Positions 7,620 through 22,278 of a stretch of DNA of 64,000 bases are shown piece by piece (position 1 is the stretch's first letter; each line of letters opens with the position of its first letter). Position numbers and translations under genes: made by a program. The DNA comes from Myxococcota bacterium (GTDB taxonomy: Bacteria > Myxococcota_A > Polyangia > Nannocystales > Nannocystaceae). Below the pieces are notes generated by a model, which worked only from the letters and a program-made list of their open reading frames with translations, had not been told where the DNA came from and ran no database searches. The stretch lies in NCBI GenBank assembly GCA_039028615.1, contig JBCCHT010000025.1, positions 128,001 through 192,000 of the forward strand, given 5' to 3'.

Positions 7620-8720
7620 CTAGCTGCGGGTCACCGAGTAGATCCGCAGGTCGCCAGCCGCCCCCGTGTCCTCGAAGTCGTCGCAGCTCGGCGGCTGCCA
7701 GTTGTGGCTCACCGAGCCGTCCGCGAAGAACTTGATGGGGCACACGATGTCCTCGCGCTCGGTGTTCGAGACGCGGGGCGTCCCCACACACAGCACACCG
7801 TACTCGTCCCAGACCGCCTCGAGCTGCTGGTACTCGCCCAGCCCGGCTTCCACCTCGGCCAGCGTGACGGGCCCGTCGGTGTTGTCCACGGCGGAGAACA
7901 CGTTGCCCGGATAGGTGTAGGGCTCACCGTCGGCGCAGTAGTCGGCGCGGACGACCCGGGTGGCGAGCAGGAACTCGTCCTCGGTCGAGTCGGTGGCCTC
8001 GTAGCCGAGCGCCATGGTCTTGCCGGGCACGCCCGCCATGCAGGCGATGTGTCGTAGCTCCGCGGCTTGGATCTCCATGTCCCCCGTCGACCCGTCGACA
8101 TGCAGGTAGTTGGCGACGCGAGCAAAGCGACCATAGTCGGCACTCTCCTCGCACAGCGACACGCGAATGCCGTTGGTGGGATCGACCCGGACCAGCTCGT
8201 ACAGGTCGTAGTCGTTGGGGCCGACCATGTGATCGACGACCTCGAGGTCCACGAAGTACTCGCCGCCGAAGTCGTGCGCCATCTGGAAGTGCAGCGTGAG
8301 GCCGATGAGGTCTTCGCCGACGAGCGTCGCGTCGGGCTCCGCCACCGAGTCGGCGCCCCACACCTGGAACTGGAAGTCGCCCTCCATGTCGAGCCGGATC
8401 CGCGCGACGTCGTCGGACGTGTCGAGCACGGGGGTGTCCAGCGCGCCGAAGATGGTGTCGGGGTGAGACACGCTCGTCAGCGTCGACGTGTAGCCGTAGC
8501 TGTTGATGAAGGGCGTGCCCGTGTCGTTGAACTCGTGCAAGTCGCGAGCGCTCGACGAGATCCACGCGTTGGTGTTGAGCGTCATGCGACGCCCGTTGTC
8601 GACCCGACCCGTTCGCAGGTCTTGATCCGAGTCGGCTCGCGTTCCCACGCTCTGGTCACACGCGGTCGCGCCCAAGGTCATGCACATGGCCAAGATGGAG
8701 ATCGTGTTCGAGCCGTTCAT
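7620..8720 (-). CDS. ADYC-domain lipoprotein
   Basis: TRVVRADYCADGEPYTYPG and EAVWDEYGVLC motifs; lipobox ATAC. Confidence 0.8.
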   Translation of the reverse strand: MNGSNTISILAMCMTLGATACDQSVGTRADSDQDLRTGRVDNGRRMTLNTNAWISSSARDLHEFNDTGTPFINSYGYTSTLTSVSHPDTIFGALDTPVLDTSDDVARIRLDMEGDFQFQVWGADSVAEPDATLVGEDLIGLTLHFQMAHDFGGEYFVDLEVVDHMVGPNDYDLYELVRVDPTNGIRVSLCEESADYGRFARVANYLHVDGSTGDMEIQAAELRHIACMAGVPGKTMALGYEATDSTEDEFLLATRVVRADYCADGEPYTYPGNVFSAVDNTDGPVTLAEVEAGLGEYQQLEAVWDEYGVLCVGTPRVSNTEREDIVCPIKFFADGSVSHNWQPPSCDDFEDTGAAGDLRIYSVTRS

Positions 8721-8749
8721 GCCCAAGGGGGTGCCCTCGACTCGTCGAT

Positions 8750-8915: not shown

Positions 8916-11900
8916 ATGGCGTCCCAGGAACGAGACGACGAATCCAGCGAGCTCGGGAGCAAGACCCGAGACGCCCGCGAGCCGAATACTCGCGAGGATG
9001 GGCTCACGCCCGAGCCGGCCTCCGAACCCCGAGGCGGACGCGGCCAGCGACGCCTCGAAGACCTGGTCCTGCAGCAGCTATTCGACGTGGAACCCGAGGC
9101 GGAGACCATCGGGCGCTACCGCGTGCTCGAGCGCATCGGCCAGGGGGGCATGGGCACCGTGTTCTCCGCCTACGACGAGGGTCTCGATCGCAAGGTGGCG
9201 ATCAAGGTGCTCGACTCGCCGGGTGAGAACACGGCCGCCTCGGCCCGACTGCAGCGCGAAGCCCAGGCGCTCGCCCGCCTCTCCCATCCCAACGTCGTGA
9301 CGGTGCACGAGGTCGGCGAAGCCGATGGCGAGCTGTTCGTGGTGATGGAGTTCCTGCGCGGCCAGAGTCTCGACGCGTGGATCCACGAGCGTCCCGCGTG
9401 GCCCGAGGTGCTCGAGGTCTTCGCCCAGGCCGGTCGCGGGATCGTGGCCGCCCACGCGGCAGGACTGGTGCACCGCGATCTCAAGCCCCACAACATCATG
9501 CGCACCGACGACGGCGCGGTGAAGGTGCTCGACTTCGGGCTCGCCCGGGCCGACGACACGCACACCGACGACGACGTCGAAGGCCCCTCGGAGCCCGCGT
9601 CCTTCGATGCCCAGCTCACCCGCACGGGCGCGCTGCTGGGCACCCCCGCGTATATGGCCCCGGAGCAGCATCGCGGGGAGCCGGCCGACACTCGGACCGA
9701 TCAATACGGCTTTTGTGCTGCCCTGCATCACGTGCTCTACGGGCGGCTGCCCTTCGCGGCCGACACGATGCAGGTGCTGGTCGCCAAGATCCTCGCCAAC
9801 CGCATCGACCCGCCGCCCAGCGATTCCCAGGTGCCCTCGTGGCTGGCCCGCGTCGTCCGCAAAGGACTGAGCGCTGCACCGGACGAGCGCTGGCCCTCGA
9901 TGCAGGCCCTGCTCGATGCGCTCGCGCGCGACCCCGCGAAGATCCGCCGTCGTCGGCTGACCATCGCGGGGCTGGGGCTCGCCGCGGTGCTCAGCGGCTA
10001 CGGGCTGTCGGAGCTGCGCACCGAGGCGGCCAACGCCTGCCCGAGTCCCCAGGACGAGCGCGAGCTTCTGTGGTCCGCCGCGCGCCGCGAGTCCGTGCAG
10101 GCGGCGTTCACCGAGGCCAACCCCCGGCGGGGCGCCGACACGCTGTCGCGCACGGCCGAGCCGATCGCGACCTATGTCGATGCGATGGGGCAGATGCGCA
10201 CCGAGGCCTGCGAGGCTCGCCGTGAGGGCGGGCAATCCGAGCGCCTCTTCGGCCTGCGCACCGCGTGCCTCGACATCCGTCGGGCGGGCGTCGATCAGCT
10301 GCTCGAGCGGTTCGAGCACGCCGACGCGGCCGCCGTCGACAATGCCGCCTGGGCCGTCGCCAGCCTTCCCCGCGTGGAGCCTTGCGGCGACGTCGAGGCG
10401 CTGCTGGCCTCGGTGCCTCCGCCCGACGATCCCGAGACCGCCGAGCAGGTGCAGCTGCTACGCGAGACGCTGGCCAGCGCCCGCTCGATGGGCCTGGCGG
10501 GCGCCTACGACGATGCGCTCTCACGGGCGAAGTCCGCGGTCGAAACCGCCGAGCGCTTGGACTACGGCCCGGCGATCGCCGAAGCCCAGCTGCGTCACGG
10601 CGACATCCTGCGCGAGGCCAACGATCACACGGCCGCCTACGACGTGCTCTCGCGCGCGATTCGATCGGCACTGGGCGCCATGCACTACGAGGCCGCGGCC
10701 GAGGCCGTGGCGCTTCGCAACTGGATCGAGGCCGACCGCCTCGATCGCCCGAAGCAAGCCTTGGCCACCGACGAGATCGCCGATGGCATGCTCGAGGCGA
10801 TCGGGCGACCGCCCCGGCTCCAGTGGTTGCTGCTCAACAACCGCGCCGTCGCTCAGGCCCGCGATGGTCGGCTCGTCGAGGCGGAGCGCTCCTATCGCGC
10901 CGCCCTCGAGGCCGCCCGGGCCCCCGGTGAAGGAGCGCTGCCGGTCGAGGTCATCTCAACGCTGGCCAACCTCGCCATCCTGCAGTCGGAGGGACTGGGG
11001 CGACCGGGTGCCGCCGCCAAGGAACTCCGCTCGGCCCGCGAACGGGCGGTGGCGCTGCTGGGCCCCGAAAACCCCCGGGTCTTCGCCCTGACCTCCATGC
11101 TCGCCGAGTTCCTCGGCGCCGCGGGTCGCCCCCAACAGGCGCAACAGCAGCTGGAGCTCGCGCGCCAGCATGTGCCGCCCGATGCCTATAGCCGGGTCCA
11201 GCTGCAGATCGACGCCGCCCAGCTCGCTCACCAGCGTCGTGACTACGAGGCCTCGCTGCGCAACGCCGAGTCTGCGCTCACCCTCGCCCGGCAACAGCTC
11301 GCCGACGACTCCTTGGTCTCCGTCGCGCTGTGGCGACGCGGCAGCGCTCGGGTAGAACTCGGCCAGACCGACGCGGGGCTCCAGGATCTCGAGGACGCGG
11401 TCGCGCGGGAGCTGAAGCGCTCGGGCCCCGACAGCGAGAGCGTCGCGCTGGCTCGGACCTTTGCCGGACTGGGTCTGCAGCGCCTCGGTCGAACCGACGA
11501 AGCGATCGCCCAGCTGGAGCAGGCACTGGAGATCACGGTCGCGCTGGGACCCAGCGCGCAGCCGGCCGTGGGGCGTCGCTTCTTCGACCTCGGGGACGCG
11601 TACCTGCAGAAGGGCTCGCTGTCGAAGGCCTCTGCGCTCCTCGGTCGCATCGCCGAGGCTCAGGACGCCGCGGGCTTCGCCGCCGACAGCATCTATCGAC
11701 TGCAGCTCGACCTGCAGCGAGGCGCGCTCGCGGCCGCCCGAGGGGAGACCGCCGCCGCCCGGACGATCTACCAGCGGGTGTGCCCGCGGCTGGCCGCCCG
11801 GGTCGAGCCCGACACGCCCGACCTCGTCTCCTGCCGCCAGGCACTCGCGCGACTCACGGACGACACGTCGCCAGCGAATTCCGGCGCGGAGCCGGGCTGA
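8916..11900 (+). CDS. Membrane Ser/Thr protein kinase with TPR repeats
   Basis: IGQGGMG, VAIK, HRDLKPHN, DFG, GTPAYMAPE; TM helix; Cys-containing domain; TPR repeats. Confidence 0.95.
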   Translation: MASQERDDESSELGSKTRDAREPNTREDGLTPEPASEPRGGRGQRRLEDLVLQQLFDVEPEAETIGRYRVLERIGQGGMGTVFSAYDEGLDRKVAIKVLDSPGENTAASARLQREAQALARLSHPNVVTVHEVGEADGELFVVMEFLRGQSLDAWIHERPAWPEVLEVFAQAGRGIVAAHAAGLVHRDLKPHNIMRTDDGAVKVLDFGLARADDTHTDDDVEGPSEPASFDAQLTRTGALLGTPAYMAPEQHRGEPADTRTDQYGFCAALHHVLYGRLPFAADTMQVLVAKILANRIDPPPSDSQVPSWLARVVRKGLSAAPDERWPSMQALLDALARDPAKIRRRRLTIAGLGLAAVLSGYGLSELRTEAANACPSPQDERELLWSAARRESVQAAFTEANPRRGADTLSRTAEPIATYVDAMGQMRTEACEARREGGQSERLFGLRTACLDIRRAGVDQLLERFEHADAAAVDNAAWAVASLPRVEPCGDVEALLASVPPPDDPETAEQVQLLRETLASARSMGLAGAYDDALSRAKSAVETAERLDYGPAIAEAQLRHGDILREANDHTAAYDVLSRAIRSALGAMHYEAAAEAVALRNWIEADRLDRPKQALATDEIADGMLEAIGRPPRLQWLLLNNRAVAQARDGRLVEAERSYRAALEAARAPGEGALPVEVISTLANLAILQSEGLGRPGAAAKELRSARERAVALLGPENPRVFALTSMLAEFLGAAGRPQQAQQQLELARQHVPPDAYSRVQLQIDAAQLAHQRRDYEASLRNAESALTLARQQLADDSLVSVALWRRGSARVELGQTDAGLQDLEDAVARELKRSGPDSESVALARTFAGLGLQRLGRTDEAIAQLEQALEITVALGPSAQPAVGRRFFDLGDAYLQKGSLSKASALLGRIAEAQDAAGFAADSIYRLQLDLQRGALAAARGETAAARTIYQRVCPRLAARVEPDTPDLVSCRQALARLTDDTSPANSGAEPG

Positions 11901-12105: not shown

Positions 12106-13461
12106 ATGAACACGCACACCCGTATCTTCCGCGCCCTTTCCCTCCCCAACCGTCGTCGTGGCCTCGGCCTCGGCTTGGCGGCCCTCACCGGCCTGTCCAT
12201 GCCCGCCTGTGATGCCCCCGAGGACGGCGAGTTCGCCGAGCTGACCGAAGAGGACAGCGACGGCAGCGAGTCCGATGCCGTGCCCCAGCTCGATGATGCC
12301 GAGCTCGTGGTCGAGCAGACCCCCGTCGCCCTCACGACAGTCGACATCAATGCCAGCACCTACGGCACCAACCTCGAGCTGACCATGTCGGGCAGCAACG
12401 TGCTCGTCCTCAACCGCAGCACCGGAGCCCAGCTCGCCTCCATCAACGTCAGCGGCGTCGACCGAATCGTCTACACTGGCACCAGCGGCGACGATACCCT
12501 CGTGGCCACCACCGTGACCGTGGCCATCGAAGCCTGGGGCAAGAAGGGCGACGACTACATCCGAACCGGCATGGCCGCGGACAAGATCTACGGTGGCAAC
12601 GGGGCCGACACCCTGCTCGGCAGCCAGGGCAACGACTACGTCTTCGGTGGCCCGGGCGAAGACACCCTCTACGGTGGAAACGGGGCAGACGTCCTCGAGG
12701 GCTCCAAGGGCGAGGACGTCCTCTACGGGCAGAATGGCAACGATATTCTCTTCGCTCACAAGATCAACGACACCAGCGACACGTGGGACGACACGCTCGA
12801 CGGCGGTAGCGGAACCGACTTCATGTGGATCGACTCCGGCGACAGCTCGACGAACGTCGAGAACGACCGCTCGAACGCCATCATCTCCATCCCCCACCTG
12901 TGGTGCACCGTTTACGGCGACGAGCTCGTCACGATGAAGAGCCGGTCGTCCGGCGAGTTCGCCAGCGCGGACAACGAGACGACCAACCTGGTCGGGGTGT
13001 ACCTCAAGACCGAGCCCTCGGCGGGCACTTCGGAGAAGTTCTACGCCCACTGCGACATGAGCGACACCTACCCGTACAAGCTGTTCTACCAGCGCTCGGG
13101 CTACGGCTTCGGCGACATTTGGGCCGCGAGCTGGGGTCCCTGGTGGGGCAACGACGAGATCGCCGATGGTATCTACGCCGGGCCCAACGGCAACCTCGAC
13201 GTGTCGGCCGACCACACCTTCGAACACCACCGCAACATTCTCGAGGGCATCTACCTCAGCGACAGCCTGGAGGACGCCATGGACGGCTACACGGGCAGCG
13301 GCCAACTCCCCTTCTACGACGGCGCCACCGCGAGCTGGACCTTCGGCTCCGACGATGAAACCGGGATCTGGAAGGTCGGAAACCCCTACATCACCTACGA
13401 CGCCGACGGCGTCGTCACCAACGAGAACCTGTTCCAGGTCACCCGCGTCGCGACCTGGTAG
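12106..13461 (+). CDS. Lipoprotein with RTX/hemolysin-type Ca-binding repeats
   Basis: Lipobox MPAC; tandem GGxGxDxL nonapeptides (GGNGADTLL, GGPGEDTLY, GQNGNDILF). Confidence 0.88.
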   Translation: MNTHTRIFRALSLPNRRRGLGLGLAALTGLSMPACDAPEDGEFAELTEEDSDGSESDAVPQLDDAELVVEQTPVALTTVDINASTYGTNLELTMSGSNVLVLNRSTGAQLASINVSGVDRIVYTGTSGDDTLVATTVTVAIEAWGKKGDDYIRTGMAADKIYGGNGADTLLGSQGNDYVFGGPGEDTLYGGNGADVLEGSKGEDVLYGQNGNDILFAHKINDTSDTWDDTLDGGSGTDFMWIDSGDSSTNVENDRSNAIISIPHLWCTVYGDELVTMKSRSSGEFASADNETTNLVGVYLKTEPSAGTSEKFYAHCDMSDTYPYKLFYQRSGYGFGDIWAASWGPWWGNDEIADGIYAGPNGNLDVSADHTFEHHRNILEGIYLSDSLEDAMDGYTGSGQLPFYDGATASWTFGSDDETGIWKVGNPYITYDADGVVTNENLFQVTRVATW

Positions 13462-13493
13462 TTCACTGAACCGAGGTCTCCCGACCTCGAACG

Positions 13494-13530
13494 AGACCGC
13501 CCGCCGCCGAGAGGTTGCGGGCGGTCTTTC
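13494..13530. terminator. Intrinsic terminator hairpin between convergent genes
   Basis: 11-bp stem AGACCGCCCGC/GCGGGCGGTCT followed by TTC; a second small hairpin lies at 13472-13489. Confidence 0.65.
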
Positions 13531-13539
13531 GTTGGGCGC

Positions 13540-14658
13540 TCAGGCCGATTTTTTGAGCAGCCTCTCCAGGCCGGCCTTGCGGAGCCGGGCGATGAACTCC
13601 TCGCGACTGTTCCCCACCGCCCGCGCCGCCGTGAGGAGGTCCCAGTCGACGGCCACCAACGTCGACAGCAGCAGGCCGCGGCGGGACTGGGCCGCGGACA
13701 GGCGCGCCGTCTTGAGAAACGCCAGCTGGCCCTGGTCGTCGAGGATCACCTCGCCCACGTGGTTGACGTCCTGGCGACGAAAGGTGGGCCGAAACCGCAT
13801 CAGGCGATAGCGATCCATGGAGTGGAGCTGCTGCATCTCGTAGTCGGCGTCGAGCAGGTCGCTGGCCATGAACGCGGCGAAGCGATTCCACTCGCGTCGC
13901 AGCCCGCCGACCGCCTGCTCGAGATCGTCGAAGGAGCGCACCGATGCGGCATCGATGGGGCTCCACAGCGCCGCCGTCTCGGGATAGAGCACCGCGTACT
14001 GCACGAGCAGGTCGGCGACCATGTCCTCGAGCATCGTGCGGTGCAAACGGCGGTAGTCCTCGGGCCGCGGCGTGATGAAGGCAGTGGAGAACGCATCGGC
14101 CACGAAGACGAGCGAGCCGACCTGGCCGGGACACAGCTCGAACACCCGCAGGGCATCGGCGAACCCGCGCAGGTCGAAGGCCCGAGAGACCCACTCGCTG
14201 CGCGGCGACAGCCCCCACGACAGCACCTCGCGGGTGTACTCGGGCCAGACCACGTTGGGACCGGTGAAGCCGACGCTGAGGTAGGCATCCATGCCCATGT
14301 GCTGGGGCAGCAGGCGAAGCTGCCCCCGCCCGATGCGCCGAGACAGCCGCTGCATGACCTTCACGTCGAAGACGTCCCGCGGCTTGGCCTTGCGCGGCAG
14401 CAGACGGGACCCGAGGTTCGCCCAGGGCTCCCCGTCGTCGAGTGCGGCCACCATCGCGTGCGGGATATACGAGGTGTAGGCCGTGCGTCGATCGAGCTGG
14501 ACCGTGGTCAGGTCGGCCGCAGTGGGCAGCGAGTAGAGCCGCAGGTCCTCGATGGGCGTCTCGCGGAGCAAGGGTACGATCCGCACCGCGCCGAAGACCT
14601 GCGAAGGCGCCGCCACGAGCCCCTCGAAGCTCAGCCGTCGTCGCTCGAAGCGTTTCAT
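13540..14658 (-). CDS. ARPP-2-like domain protein (family recalled, unverified)
   Basis: APSQVFGAVRIVPLLR..DLRL, YIPH, RLLPQH, GLSPRSE, ALRVFE..PGQVG, HRTMLED, FLKTARLSAAQ; ATGA-coupled to the upstream vWA gene. Confidence 0.65.
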   Translation of the reverse strand: MKRFERRRLSFEGLVAAPSQVFGAVRIVPLLRETPIEDLRLYSLPTAADLTTVQLDRRTAYTSYIPHAMVAALDDGEPWANLGSRLLPRKAKPRDVFDVKVMQRLSRRIGRGQLRLLPQHMGMDAYLSVGFTGPNVVWPEYTREVLSWGLSPRSEWVSRAFDLRGFADALRVFELCPGQVGSLVFVADAFSTAFITPRPEDYRRLHRTMLEDMVADLLVQYAVLYPETAALWSPIDAASVRSFDDLEQAVGGLRREWNRFAAFMASDLLDADYEMQQLHSMDRYRLMRFRPTFRRQDVNHVGEVILDDQGQLAFLKTARLSAAQSRRGLLLSTLVAVDWDLLTAARAVGNSREEFIARLRKAGLERLLKKSA

Positions 14659-16181
14659 CGGCGGCCTCCCGATGCGTCGTGCACGAGCGCCTGCACCCGT
14701 CCGTGGAGAAAATCCTGGAGTCCCGCGAGCGCCCCGTCGTCGGCGGCGAAGCGGGCAAACTCGAGCATGACCGGCAGGTCTTCGGCGTCACGCACCCCGA
14801 TGGTGGGAATGCGGGGCGTGAGCGTGCGCGGAGAGAAGTCGTCGGCATCGAAGACGGGGTTGGCGTGCACCACCACCGTCTCGCCGCCGGGATCGAGCGA
14901 TTGCCGAAACACCCGCAGCACCTCCCCGGCCGCACCGGGCGGGTCGTTGTCGAAGCCGTCGGAGAGCACCACCAACAACGAAGGCCGCTGGCGAAGCGCG
15001 CGAATCAGCGGCGACGCGAGATCGGTCGACCCCTGCGGCACCACGTGGAGCGACGAGTCGGGCAGGTCCGGGTCCAGCGGCGGGGGATGGGTCCACTCGG
15101 CCCGATAGTCCTGGGCGGCCGCGCGCAGCAGGTAGTGCCCGGCCAGGGTCACCGCGAGCGGGCGACGACGCTTCTCGGACGAGCCCGACATCGAGTAGCT
15201 GTTGTCGAGCACCGCGGTCACCGAGCCCAGGGAAAAGCGCTGCTGCTGCACCACCCGCTGCGCCGCGCGGGTCAACGCCGCATGAAGCTCGGGGCCCCGA
15301 GTCCGACGCTCTTCGGCCGATCGCGTGACCACCCAGCTGCACAAGCGCGTCAGCGGCAAGGCATCGAGGTCGACCTCCACCTCCACGCCCTCGCGCGCCG
15401 TGCTCTGCTGCAGACGCAGGCGCTCTCGCTTGGTCATGCGCGGCTCGATGCCCTTCAAGAAGGTCACCCGATCGATGCCGTGCGTCCCGGCGAAGCCCTC
15501 CGCCACCGTATAGGGCAGCTCGTAGATCGCCCGCGTGTCGTAGTGCGCCCGGCGATAGGCGTCGAGCAGCGAGTGCTCGTAGGCCCAGCCCTTCTTTCGA
15601 CCCTGCCGCTCGCCGAACAAGAAGCGCCCGAGCTCGGCGGGCAGCTTCATGTGGCAGTGCCGCACCGCGGCCCGCAGCGCCGTGCGGTACTTGACCGCGT
15701 CGAAGTTCAGGTCGCCACGCTCGCTCAGCCACTGCTTCACGATCGCCCGCGTGCGCCGATTGTTGACCCGGCGAGCCACCAGCGTGCGAAACAAGCGATA
15801 GGCCTGAGGCGGCGGCAAGCGTCGCAGCGCCGCCGAACACAGGCGCCCCTCTTCGCGCCACGCCTCGCCCGAGACCTCGCGGCTCGACGCCAGCAGGTTC
15901 ACGATGACCTTGGCCGTGTTGTAGTGGTTGAGCCCTACCGCGAGCGAGCGGGCGTACAGCCGACGGTAGTTGCCGCGGATATACTCGTGCAGGAACTCGA
16001 TGGAGATCGCCTGCCCGTCGGCACTGCCGTAGAACTCGCGCTGCCCCGTGCTCGAGAACGCCGCGTTGACGAACGTGACCAGGTCCTCGCGCTCGACTCG
16101 AGAGGCCGCGCGCGCCGAGCCGCCCTTGGGCAGTCGGTCGTGATCGGGTACTTGGGTGCGAGGCGGGCTCTGGGTCGTCAT
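14655..16181 (-). CDS. TROVE/Ro60-like helical protein with a C-terminal vWA (MIDAS) domain
   Basis: N-terminal EDLVTFVNAAFSSTGQREFY resembles the TROVE start; basic helical core; AVLDNSYS (DxSxS), G-S-T-DL, VVLSDG. Confidence 0.7.
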   Translation of the reverse strand: MTTQSPPRTQVPDHDRLPKGGSARAASRVEREDLVTFVNAAFSSTGQREFYGSADGQAISIEFLHEYIRGNYRRLYARSLAVGLNHYNTAKVIVNLLASSREVSGEAWREEGRLCSAALRRLPPPQAYRLFRTLVARRVNNRRTRAIVKQWLSERGDLNFDAVKYRTALRAAVRHCHMKLPAELGRFLFGERQGRKKGWAYEHSLLDAYRRAHYDTRAIYELPYTVAEGFAGTHGIDRVTFLKGIEPRMTKRERLRLQQSTAREGVEVEVDLDALPLTRLCSWVVTRSAEERRTRGPELHAALTRAAQRVVQQQRFSLGSVTAVLDNSYSMSGSSEKRRRPLAVTLAGHYLLRAAAQDYRAEWTHPPPLDPDLPDSSLHVVPQGSTDLASPLIRALRQRPSLLVVLSDGFDNDPPGAAGEVLRVFRQSLDPGGETVVVHANPVFDADDFSPRTLTPRIPTIGVRDAEDLPVMLEFARFAADDGALAGLQDFLHGRVQALVHDASGGRR

Positions 16182-16246
16182 CGGAAGTCACCGAAGGGGT
16201 GGCTCGACGACGATTCGAGCACGAGTTGGAAGAAGCGCCGGCCGGG

Positions 16247-16310
16247 GCGAGAAAGCGCGGATCACGTCAACGCGTCCAATCGAGTTCGGAAATCCGCACC
16301 GAAGTCCCGC
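16247..16310 (-). ncRNA. Candidate structured RNA (Y-RNA-like hairpin) upstream of the TROVE-like gene
   Basis: GCGGGA-CUUC-GGUGCGGAU...AUCCGCGCU-U-UCUCGC bulged stem enclosing UUCCGAACUCGAUUGGACGCGUUGACGUG. Confidence 0.45.
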
Positions 16311-16335
16311 AGCCGACCTCTTTGGCTTAACACGC

Positions 16336-19762: not shown

Positions 19763-21028
19763 ATGGCTTATCGTTTGGATGGATTGAAGATGAAGATCGT
19801 CGCCGGGCTGGGCCTGTCGCCGCTGCTGCTGACAGGCACGTCGGGGTGCGTCTCGCGTTCGGTCGATGGTCCCGACGACGACATGGGCGGGGACGGCAGC
19901 AGCGGCATGGCGGAGACGTCGGGGTCCTCGGCCACGACCGCGATGTCGACCACGTCTCCCGTCACCACCCTGCCCCCCAGCGACGAGGGCACCACCTCGG
20001 TGCCGCCCGAGCAGATGTGCTTCCCCTCCGACGACTGGCTCGAGTGGGAGATCTGGTGGGGCGTCGATGCCAACGGCGACTGCGTGTGCGATCAAGAGTG
20101 CCAAATGGTCGTGCAGTCGCAGTGGGACGAGGAGAACTGCTGCGGCAGCTGCTGGTACACCTTTGGCGAAGTGCTCTGCTCCGAGCCGCTCGCCGGCCAG
20201 TGCCACTTCATCGTCACCATGTACGAGGAGGGCTGCGGCAAGGGCCGGCCGCTCATCGTGAACGACGAAGCCCGGGTCGCATGCGTGACCGAGCGCGACG
20301 ACTGGCAGCGCGGCGACATGCCGCGGGTGGACGGTCTGTCCCCGAGGCAGCGCCGAGAGCTCGCCGCGTACTGGACCGATGCGGCACTCGCCGAGCATGC
20401 CTCGGTGGCCTCGTTCGCTCGCTTCATGCTCGACCTGTCTGCCCTCGGGGCTCCGCCCGAGCTGCTCGCGGACACCAGCGCCGCCATGCACGACGAGATT
20501 CGCCACGCCCAGGTCGCCTTTGCCCTCGCGTCGGGTTACGGCGGCACGGCGGTGGGCCCCGGGCCCCTGCCCATGCACGGCCTGAACGCGGGGCAGAGCG
20601 CCGAGTCCATCGTGCGGGCCGCGGTGCGCGAGGGGTGCGTCGAAGAGACGCTCGCCGCGGCCGAAGCCGAGCTCGCCGCCCATCGTGCAACCGAGCCCAC
20701 CGTCAAAGCTGCGCTCACGGCCATCGCCGAGGACGAGGCGCGCCATGCCGTGCTCGCGTGGCGCTTCGTGGACTGGGCAGTGCAGCAAGACCGCTCGCTG
20801 GCAGCGGCGGTGCGTGACGAATTCGATCGCGCCATCGCGGCGGCACAGCGTGCCTCCGTCGCCCCCAGCACCGACCTCGAGCCCACCGTGGCCGCCGCCC
20901 ATGGCGTCCTGTCGGCGGACGCTCGCCACACGCTGCGCGCCCGGTGCCTGCGGGGCACGGTCGCCGTGTGTGCGAAGGCGATGCTCGTCGACCGTACCGA
21001 CGTCGAGTCGGCGTCGACGCTCGCGTAG
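19763..21028 (+). CDS. Myxobacterial ferritin-like domain lipoprotein
   Basis: TSGC lipobox, Cys-rich segment, GRPL, EHASVASFARF, DEIRH, EGCVEET, DEARH diiron motifs. Confidence 0.85.
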   Translation: MAYRLDGLKMKIVAGLGLSPLLLTGTSGCVSRSVDGPDDDMGGDGSSGMAETSGSSATTAMSTTSPVTTLPPSDEGTTSVPPEQMCFPSDDWLEWEIWWGVDANGDCVCDQECQMVVQSQWDEENCCGSCWYTFGEVLCSEPLAGQCHFIVTMYEEGCGKGRPLIVNDEARVACVTERDDWQRGDMPRVDGLSPRQRRELAAYWTDAALAEHASVASFARFMLDLSALGAPPELLADTSAAMHDEIRHAQVAFALASGYGGTAVGPGPLPMHGLNAGQSAESIVRAAVREGCVEETLAAAEAELAAHRATEPTVKAALTAIAEDEARHAVLAWRFVDWAVQQDRSLAAAVRDEFDRAIAAAQRASVAPSTDLEPTVAAAHGVLSADARHTLRARCLRGTVAVCAKAMLVDRTDVESASTLA

Positions 21029-21108
21029 AGCGAGGCGGAGACCCCCGTGCAGCGGTACGGACCCTTCATCTTGTTCGTACCGCGGCATGGGTCTACGTTG
21101 GCCTCGCG

Positions 21109-22278
21109 ATGAATCGACGCTCGCGGTATTCGACTCTGGGTTGGGCCTTGGTACTCGCGAGCTGCGGCGGCAGCGAAACCGAGCCCGCCGATGCGGCAGG
21201 AAGCAGCGGGTCCTCGCTCGCCAGCTCCGATGGCTCCGCCGACGCAGCATCTTCGGGTGACGGCAGCGACGGCCCCACCGATCCCACCGACCCCGGGTCC
21301 ACGAGCAGCGCGGACTCCAGCAGCGACGACGGCCCGCCGGGTGATTGCGAGGCCGAGGGTTTTCACGTCGACGGCGGTACGCTCTACGACGACCACTGCA
21401 ACCCGTTCGTCTTTCGCGGGCTCAACTACCCCTACGCGTGGTTTGCCTGGCGTGACGACACCGAGCAGCAATTCGCCGATATCGCGGCCGCAGGGGCCAA
21501 TACGATGCGGATCGTGCTGGCCAACGGCGAGCAGTGGGAGCGCATCGACGGACGGCAGCTGACCCAGGTCATCGACTGGGCGAAGAGCCAGCGACTGGTC
21601 GTCGTGCTCGAGATCCACGACGCCACGGGATGGTCGGAGCAGGCCAGCGCGGCCGATCCTCAGACCGCGGTCGACTACTGGCTCAGCCCCGACATCCGCT
21701 CCGCGATCGATGGCAACGAAGCGTTCGTGATCATCAACATCGCCAACGAGCCGCTCGGCAACGACACCACCGATCAGTGGGTGCCCTTCCACTCGGGGGC
21801 GATCGCCGAGCTTCGTCGGGCCGGCCTGCGACACACGCTCATCGTGGACGCGCCCAACTGGGGTCAGGACTGGAGCGGCACCATGCGCGACGGCGTGGCG
21901 GCGCAGCAGATCTTCGACGCCGACCCCGATGGCAACGTCGTGTTCTCCGTGCACATGTACGACGTGTACGGCACGGAGCCGAGCGTGCAGAGTTACTTCG
22001 ACGAGTTCCTCGCCTCGGGCCTGCCGCTCATCGTCGGCGAGTTCGCGGCCGACCACGGGCCGAAGAACCCGGTGGCGGCCGAAGCGATCATGGCCGCGAG
22101 CGAAGCGGCGTCGGTCGGCTACCTGGGGTGGTCGTGGTCGGGCAACTCGGCCGAGCTGGCGTCGCTGGACATCGTCGTCGATTTCTCCGGGGCCAACCTC
22201 TCGCCCTGGGGCGAGATGCTGGTCAACGGTCCCAACGGGCTGCAAGCCACCGCGCAGACCTGCAGCTGCTACGAATAG
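21109..22278 (+). CDS. GH5 glycoside hydrolase lipoprotein (beta-mannanase-like, GH5_8)
   Basis: Lipobox LASC; GANTMRIVL, EIHDATG, INIANEP (acid/base), DAPNWGQD, HMY, IVGEF (nucleophile), WSWSGN. Confidence 0.92.
   Translation: MNRRSRYSTLGWALVLASCGGSETEPADAAGSSGSSLASSDGSADAASSGDGSDGPTDPTDPGSTSSADSSSDDGPPGDCEAEGFHVDGGTLYDDHCNPFVFRGLNYPYAWFAWRDDTEQQFADIAAAGANTMRIVLANGEQWERIDGRQLTQVIDWAKSQRLVVVLEIHDATGWSEQASAADPQTAVDYWLSPDIRSAIDGNEAFVIINIANEPLGNDTTDQWVPFHSGAIAELRRAGLRHTLIVDAPNWGQDWSGTMRDGVAAQQIFDADPDGNVVFSVHMYDVYGTEPSVQSYFDEFLASGLPLIVGEFAADHGPKNPVAAEAIMAASEAASVGYLGWSWSGNSAELASLDIVVDFSGANLSPWGEMLVNGPNGLQATAQTCSCYE

Follow-up and report, generated by a model that had tools for sequence, protein, structure and literature searches.

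The unit and its three parts

The window analysed here is a stretch of 64,000 nucleotides from a Myxococcota bacterium (contig JBCCHT010000025.1 of assembly GCA_039028615.1) with a G+C content of about 68%, and it carries on its minus strand a unit of less than 3 kb, composed of a structured RNA of about 81 nt, a gene for a 508-aa protein and a gene for an ARPP-2 protein. The original prediction, which was made from the letters of the window, described two genes coupled by ATGA and read them, together with an upstream RNA, as a divergent Ro-like ribonucleoprotein. Both genes were confirmed at 14655-16181 (508 aa) and 13540-14658 (372 aa), and the RNA, for which no position had been given, was located at 16237-16317. 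The Ro60-like fold of the first protein, the co-occurring partner gene and the conserved upstream RNA all support that reading, and the unit is probably a new form of the Ro60/Y-RNA system with its own RNA family and an ARPP partner.

The 508-aa protein is related to Ro60

The predicted AlphaFold2 (AF2) model of the 508-aa protein (pLDDT 88.2, pTM 0.88) is composed of a helical ring part (about residues 23-314) and a vWA (von Willebrand factor A) domain (about residues 318-480) with a MIDAS (metal ion-dependent adhesion site). The top three matches of this model among 48,161 chains were three Ro60 structures, and their alignments extended over about 400 residues (model residues 28-500, rmsd 4.8-5.7), taking in the helical ring as well as the vWA domain. 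The protein had no match in Pfam, NCBIfam or PADLOC, and the Pfam TROVE family (PF05731) was absent even at E up to 0.1. Despite this, remote TROVE homology is indicated because hhalign of the 508-aa profile with 17 TROVE proteins gave a probability of 97.2 (E 3.2e-11), in an alignment that starts at residue 136. The MIDAS, predicted to be intact, has its full residue set (D326-x-S328-x-S330, T386 and D408), in which D326, S328, S330 and D408 are invariant among 98 relatives and also in the sister clade described below, and T386 is found in at least 90%. The GQREFY segment, which had been called TROVE-like, is present at residues 46-51, but its likeness to TROVE was judged by eye only, two TROVE proteins having a comparable stretch close to their beginning.

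In the tree, the family of the 508-aa protein formed its own branch, apart from the eight TROVE proteins included. The family has 1766 database relatives, which fall into 729 clusters at 50% identity, and no Pfam domain was seen in the 120 matches listed; Myxococcus xanthus is among the genomes that carry it. With the structure being a prediction, these comparisons support a distant and divergent kinship of the 508-aa protein with Ro60, the ring protein of RNA surveillance. A genome search with PF05731 retrieved two other genes (C44, about 100031-101650, and C16, about 126991-128544) and not the 508-aa gene; with the 508-aa protein and a paralog described below, the organism thus encodes four Ro-like proteins.

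A conserved and structured RNA precedes the ring gene

The first 13 loci have the RNA motif in common, in the sequence that lies upstream. Its covariance model matched the window at 16229-16319 with 50.6 bits, the sole match in the whole genome, and the window RNA had no match in Rfam. The RNA begins with a terminal stem, in which a bulged or mismatched pyrimidine comes before GGGA/UCCC, followed by a second helix of 8 bp, and its far half consists of a conserved UUCCG(AA) internal loop and an apical hairpin; the window RNA has neither a D arm nor a T arm. When 50 non-redundant copies out of 105 were aligned by sequence alone, 92.9% of the cells in the three-helix structure were paired and 21 of its 25 pairs had changed on both sides, with helix 1 being 92% paired and showing double changes in 9 of 13 pairs. 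None of 500 shuffles scored as high, a test that is inflated by kinship of the copies although many pair types still recur at most positions, and the pairing fell to 38-48% when the structure was slid. RNAalifold gave the same three helices.

The apical loop, measured with a crude script, is 7 nt long in 23 of 50 copies, and it starts with a pyrimidine and U, ends with a purine and A and varies in the middle. Anticodon loops share this start with pyrimidine-U and end with purine-A. The window copy, with a divergent apical hairpin and a loop of 6 nt, is an exception to the 7-nt norm. In the internal loop UUCCG is near-invariant, and CGAA was counted by eye in 31 of 50 copies (16285-16288 on the minus strand of the window). 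The RNA family lacks the leading G of the YrlA motif, which is GNCGAAN0-1G in the accessible text of PMC4201824. Of 84 distinct copies, 49 have a promoter-like TAnnnT box ahead of their first stem, compared with 21 of 336 control windows. Three stranded long-fragment RNA-seq runs of a Myxococcus-type relative (L184, whose protein is 98% identical to that of M. xanthus) had low depth and no small-RNA peak over the RNA, whereas the promoter-like box and the tandem copies speak for a discrete small RNA. The RNA is likely a Y-like RNA bound by the 508-aa ring.

The three parts are linked across loci

The RNA was found upstream of the ring gene in all 57 testable loci (52 by nhmmer and 5 by the covariance model), many of them close kin; a locus counted as testable when it was gene-first, kept its 5' end intact and had 200 nt of sequence upstream. 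ARPP-2 was found downstream in 72 of the 74 loci with 700 nt of downstream sequence, and the two genes thus co-occur across genomes. A blind pattern scan of metagenomes returned 118 matches, 45 of which were the RNA; the ring gene accompanied 38 of these 45 and none of the other 73. Among the seven RNA matches without it, two break off less than 50 nt from the RNA, in one the RNA is immediately followed by ARPP-2, and four, all from one lineage, have no ring gene nearby.

Several irregular loci were also observed. RNAs without a nearby ring gene are present at L069:2970-3331, L075:2990-3084, L110:2990-3084 and L118:270-521, in tandem in L069 and L118, and in L069, L075 and L110 the RNA is followed by an ORF of 333-335 aa with no Pfam match. 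At L015:335-1449 and L125:1-365 the ring gene is missing and an RNA with a decayed 3' stem stands directly before ARPP-2. Broken units that retain the RNA were found at L013:5863-7281 (a deletion, in Sorangium sp. So ce1000) and L193:671-3261 (frameshifts, in G623). Small ORFs lie between the ring and ARPP genes at L148:2919-3386, L223:7449-7724, L239:7179-7445 and L240:6565-7035, and L240 has tRNA calls as well.

The ARPP-2 partner lacks a conserved cysteine and has a predicted DNA-binding end

The 372-aa protein had been read as ARPP-2-like, and it matched PF22549 (ARPP-2) over residues 10-281 with an E value of 8.1e-90 and 301 bits, against a curated cut-off of 27. In the accessible text of PMC9503650, ARPP proteins are characterised by an absolutely conserved cysteine and glutamine and are proposed to act on sugars (ribose) through the conserved cysteine; which cysteine is intended there we infer. 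No cysteine column reached 85% conservation among 70 ARPP-2 sequences. The conserved glutamines are Q20, Q179 and Q324, the invariant polar residues are E174, Q179, D201, H206 and E303, and H67, R104, R115 and H120 are near-invariant. The ARPP-1 of the sister clade, which aligned with ARPP-2 at a profile probability of 98, has a C-I-Q motif. The C-terminal extension of ARPP-2 reaches past the end of the ARPP-1 alignment, and from profile matches in the family it is predicted to end in a Fis-like, DNA-binding helix-turn-helix (HTH) at about residues 321-372 (13543-13698, minus strand). HTH_8 was matched by 7 of the 70 family members (best E 6.6e-6), and the window's own protein had no match to it. 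A profile of the ARPP-2 C-terminus retrieved, at E up to 0.01, three other ORFs of the genome; two of them carry a GAFTGA-like motif and are likely sigma-54 activators, matched in their HTHs.

A sister clade carries ARPP-1 and tRNA-bearing RNAs

The genome also encodes a paralog of the 508-aa protein (C27:169507-171123, 30% identical over 253 residues), which belongs to a sister clade. Its unit at C27:168539-172216 (L202:12540-16217, minus strand) is arranged as seven tRNA calls, the last of which is nested in a larger stem, followed by the 538-aa Ro-like paralog and a 324-aa ARPP-1. This unit may be a prophage or a mobile island, because the paralog groups with viral sequences in the tree. 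The sister clade has 24 relatives on large IMG/VR viral contigs, some of them identical, and 4 more were added by the main profile; an ARPP gene is downstream in all of these 28 viral loci, and tRNA calls were made in 21 of the 24 loci scanned. Neither this tRNA-bearing clade nor the HTH of ARPP-2 was covered by the original prediction.

The upstream RNAs of the sister clade have a similar frame, with a terminal stem, RRACT, a second helix and a UU(A/C/U)CAG-type loop. At a motif threshold picked after earlier scans, both stems were closed in 21 of 43 matches within 1 kb compared with 15 of 219 elsewhere; the closed matches are spread over 12 of 25 loci and frequently stand in tandem. Among these 21 frames, 8 enclose a D-anticodon-T cloverleaf, 3 a T-acceptor-D permutation like that of YrlA, 2 a T arm and 8 a short hairpin, and the nested cloverleaves exceed the Rfam tRNA cut-off. 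Nine sister-clade loci had no Rfam match except tRNA, tRNA-Sec and tmRNA. The covariance model of the window's clade picked up only the element of the paralog in the sister clade, at E 1.3, and the RNA frames of the two clades are likely homologous. Calls of tRNAs with odd or stop anticodons closely precede the ring gene at L216:5534-5607, L224:5517-5591, L227:5658-5733, L228:5595-5669, L231:5652-5726 and L233:5553-5765. These calls are modules inside larger RNAs, and through them phage genomes are likely to receive false tRNA annotations. The accessible text of PMC7824862 describes tRNA cleavage as a host defence and mentions that some jumbo phages have ROT/TROVE proteins, in agreement with the setting of the sister clade; the 508-aa family is not mentioned in that text.

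Surroundings of the unit in the window

A strong hairpin, to which no strand is assigned, lies at about 13490-13533, between the unit and a convergent gene for an RTX calcium-binding repeat protein (12106-13461, plus strand). Its fold has a z-score of -3.1 on the minus strand and -4.2 on the plus strand, and none of 200 shuffles was equally good. The terminator said to close the unit is therefore present as a hairpin, but the better U-rich tail is on the plus strand, so that the hairpin serves the RTX-repeat gene at least as well, and it was not among the calls of a consensus terminator scan; it is likely a terminator shared by both. The RTX-repeat gene is an ordinary neighbour, as are those for an ADYC-domain protein (7620-8726, minus strand), a Ser/Thr kinase with tetratricopeptide repeats (8916-11900, plus strand) and a GH5 glycoside hydrolase (20944-22278, plus strand); the kinase, the RTX-repeat protein and the glycoside hydrolase are unrelated to the unit. 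The statement that no rtcB/rtcR context is visible was borne out, as rtcB, rtcA and rtcR were found neither in 110 neighbouring ORFs (a selection from 171 called, with a few added) scanned at E up to 1e-5 nor in the 8 window neighbours.

Possible function of the particle

The likeness of the fold to Ro60, the covarying RNA structure, the fixed order of the three parts and the tRNA modules in the sister-clade RNAs are observed, and on this basis the ring protein and the Y-like RNA probably form a particle of the Ro/Y-RNA type. By analogy with Ro60 and Y RNAs, the ring would grip the terminal helix and the CGAA loop, and the far end of the RNA would be a swappable payload derived from tRNA, in the form of a cloverleaf or a YrlA-like permuted elbow in the sister clade and of a minimal anticodon-like hairpin in the window's clade. 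Such a payload could act as a bait or sentinel for tRNA-cutting nucleases. ARPP-2 would be the dedicated output in place of polynucleotide phosphorylase (PNPase), and it may act on DNA or transcription, because the family cysteine was apparently lost and a predicted Fis-like HTH gained, unlike the cysteine enzyme proposed for ARPP-1. The full model, in which the particle senses tRNA-directed RNA damage with ARPP-2 as its output, falls somewhat short of probable and is proposed tentatively as the preferred reading; the sensing role and the HTH output, taken as claims of their own, are at least as tentative. More doubtful is a broader reading, in which bacteria and large phages share a second, deeply separate Ro/Y-RNA branch that uses one protein-binding RNA frame as a chassis for tRNA-shaped baits (a cloverleaf, a permuted elbow or a bare anticodon loop) and wires bait cleavage to a dedicated ARPP, which in phages would be a cysteine enzyme and in bacteria a switch that binds DNA, so that the unit would guard the tRNA pool by itself.

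The unit might instead perform RNA quality control similar to that of RYPER, with the Y-like RNA as a tether or gate, ARPP-2 as an enzyme that treats ring-held damaged RNA at its ends or sugars, and the tRNA-like tip only stabilising the RNA or docking the enzyme. Tested Y RNAs do work as tethers or gates, as far as the accessible texts of 10.1101/312249 and PMC12135203 describe them, ARPP-2 retains its invariant and near-invariant polar residues, the proposed action of ARPP on ribose (PMC9503650, accessible text) would suit such a role, and the sister clade is set among phage tRNA arrays. However, ARPP-2 does not conserve the cysteine on which the enzyme proposal is based, the Fis-like HTH is left unexplained, and no conserved ligase, nuclease or end-healing gene was found near the unit in the neighbouring ORFs scanned; we regard this explanation as rather unlikely.

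The RNA could also be a cis-acting leader of the two-gene operon, such as a protein-bound attenuator or an autoregulatory element, rather than a trans-acting Y RNA. It always lies upstream and shares the strand of the gene, the distance being mostly 95-200 nt, it directly precedes ARPP-2 in L015 and L125, and it gave no separate RNA-seq peak. But pairing between its 5' and 3' ends sets in right after the promoter box, its copies are tandem in 5 loci, its distance to the gene reaches 858 nt in L005 and 440 nt in L148, copies without the gene occur in L069, L075, L110 and L118, and the sister-clade RNAs carry tRNA payloads, all of which make a leader improbable. A stand-alone anti-phage or toxin-antitoxin module, in which the ring protein and RNA restrain a toxic ARPP-2 until infection, would agree with the patchy distribution (9 of 301 genomes have ARPP-2, and in two other samples the ring gene was present in 20 of 251 genomes and in 28 of 201), the compact unit with variable flanking genes and the sister form on viral contigs, but it is hardly probable given the lack of a PADLOC match, the absence of defence-island context from most loci (with a single restriction-modification neighbour, at L036), the slow evolution of the unit proteins (mean column identity 51% and 47%) and the RNA and ARPP-2 without a ring gene in L015 and L125.

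The probable Ro/Y-RNA-type particle with its proposed ARPP output differs from the known Ro60 cases in that their effectors are housekeeping nucleases recruited from elsewhere, whereas here a private partner is co-encoded with the RNA and the ring. Since the whole particle fits in less than 3 kb and occurs in genomes including that of Myxococcus xanthus, it can be rebuilt and tested. The analysis adds an uncatalogued family of small RNAs, gives a fold to a protein family for which no Pfam domain was seen in the matches listed, and places ARPP-2 in a context. It also shows that on phage contigs some of the 'tRNA genes' whose anticodons are odd are tRNA modules enclosed by larger RNAs. If the separate-branch reading were true, it would offer a direct view of the origin of Y RNAs from tRNAs.

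Comparison with known systems

In full-text searches of the literature, no paper was found that joins ARPP to a Ro-like protein or describes the RNA; reviews, supplements and the source of PF22549 may note the gene pair. The closest known systems are the bacterial Ro60 particles, namely Rsr-Yrn1-PNPase (RYPER) of Deinococcus and Rsr with YrlA and YrlB of Salmonella, as given in the accessible texts of PMC4201824 and 10.1101/312249. The unit shares with them the fold of a helical ring and vWA domain, an adjoining small RNA gene on the same strand, a long stem formed by the two RNA ends, in many cases a second RNA, and a modular, tRNA-like far end, which in three sister-clade cases has the YrlA order of T arm, acceptor and D arm. 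Unlike them, the 508-aa protein has no Pfam TROVE match and stands on a separate branch, the RNA is outside the Rfam families, the fixed partner is ARPP-2 and not a housekeeping nuclease, and no rtcB/rtcR linkage was seen. In the accessible text of PMC12135203, CGAA is the motif by which the Yrl RNAs of phage are recognised, and it sits there in an internal bulge that a 5'-3' stem flanks; the CGAA-bearing internal loop of the window RNA resembles them. The Ro60 of Thermus phage phiLo (PDB 9l5y), which comes with Yrl1 and Yrl2, is 13% identical to the 508-aa protein; its particle recruits host PNPase, and no ARPP gene is among the parts described in the same text.

ARPP (PF20208) belongs to the same superfamily as ARPP-2, and the sister-clade partner is ARPP-1. 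The contexts given for ARPP in the accessible text of PMC9503650 are ARG-centred and two-gene ones, HIRAN, WYL and deacetylase, with no Ro-like protein or RNA among them. Unlike the ARPP described so far, ARPP-2 has no conserved cysteine and bears an added, predicted Fis-like HTH. RtcR controls RNA-repair operons in response to damaged tRNA. The unit encodes neither a CARF nor an AAA+ domain, but by analogy it would share with RtcR the proposed logic of damaged tRNA as the input and a Fis-type HTH as the output.
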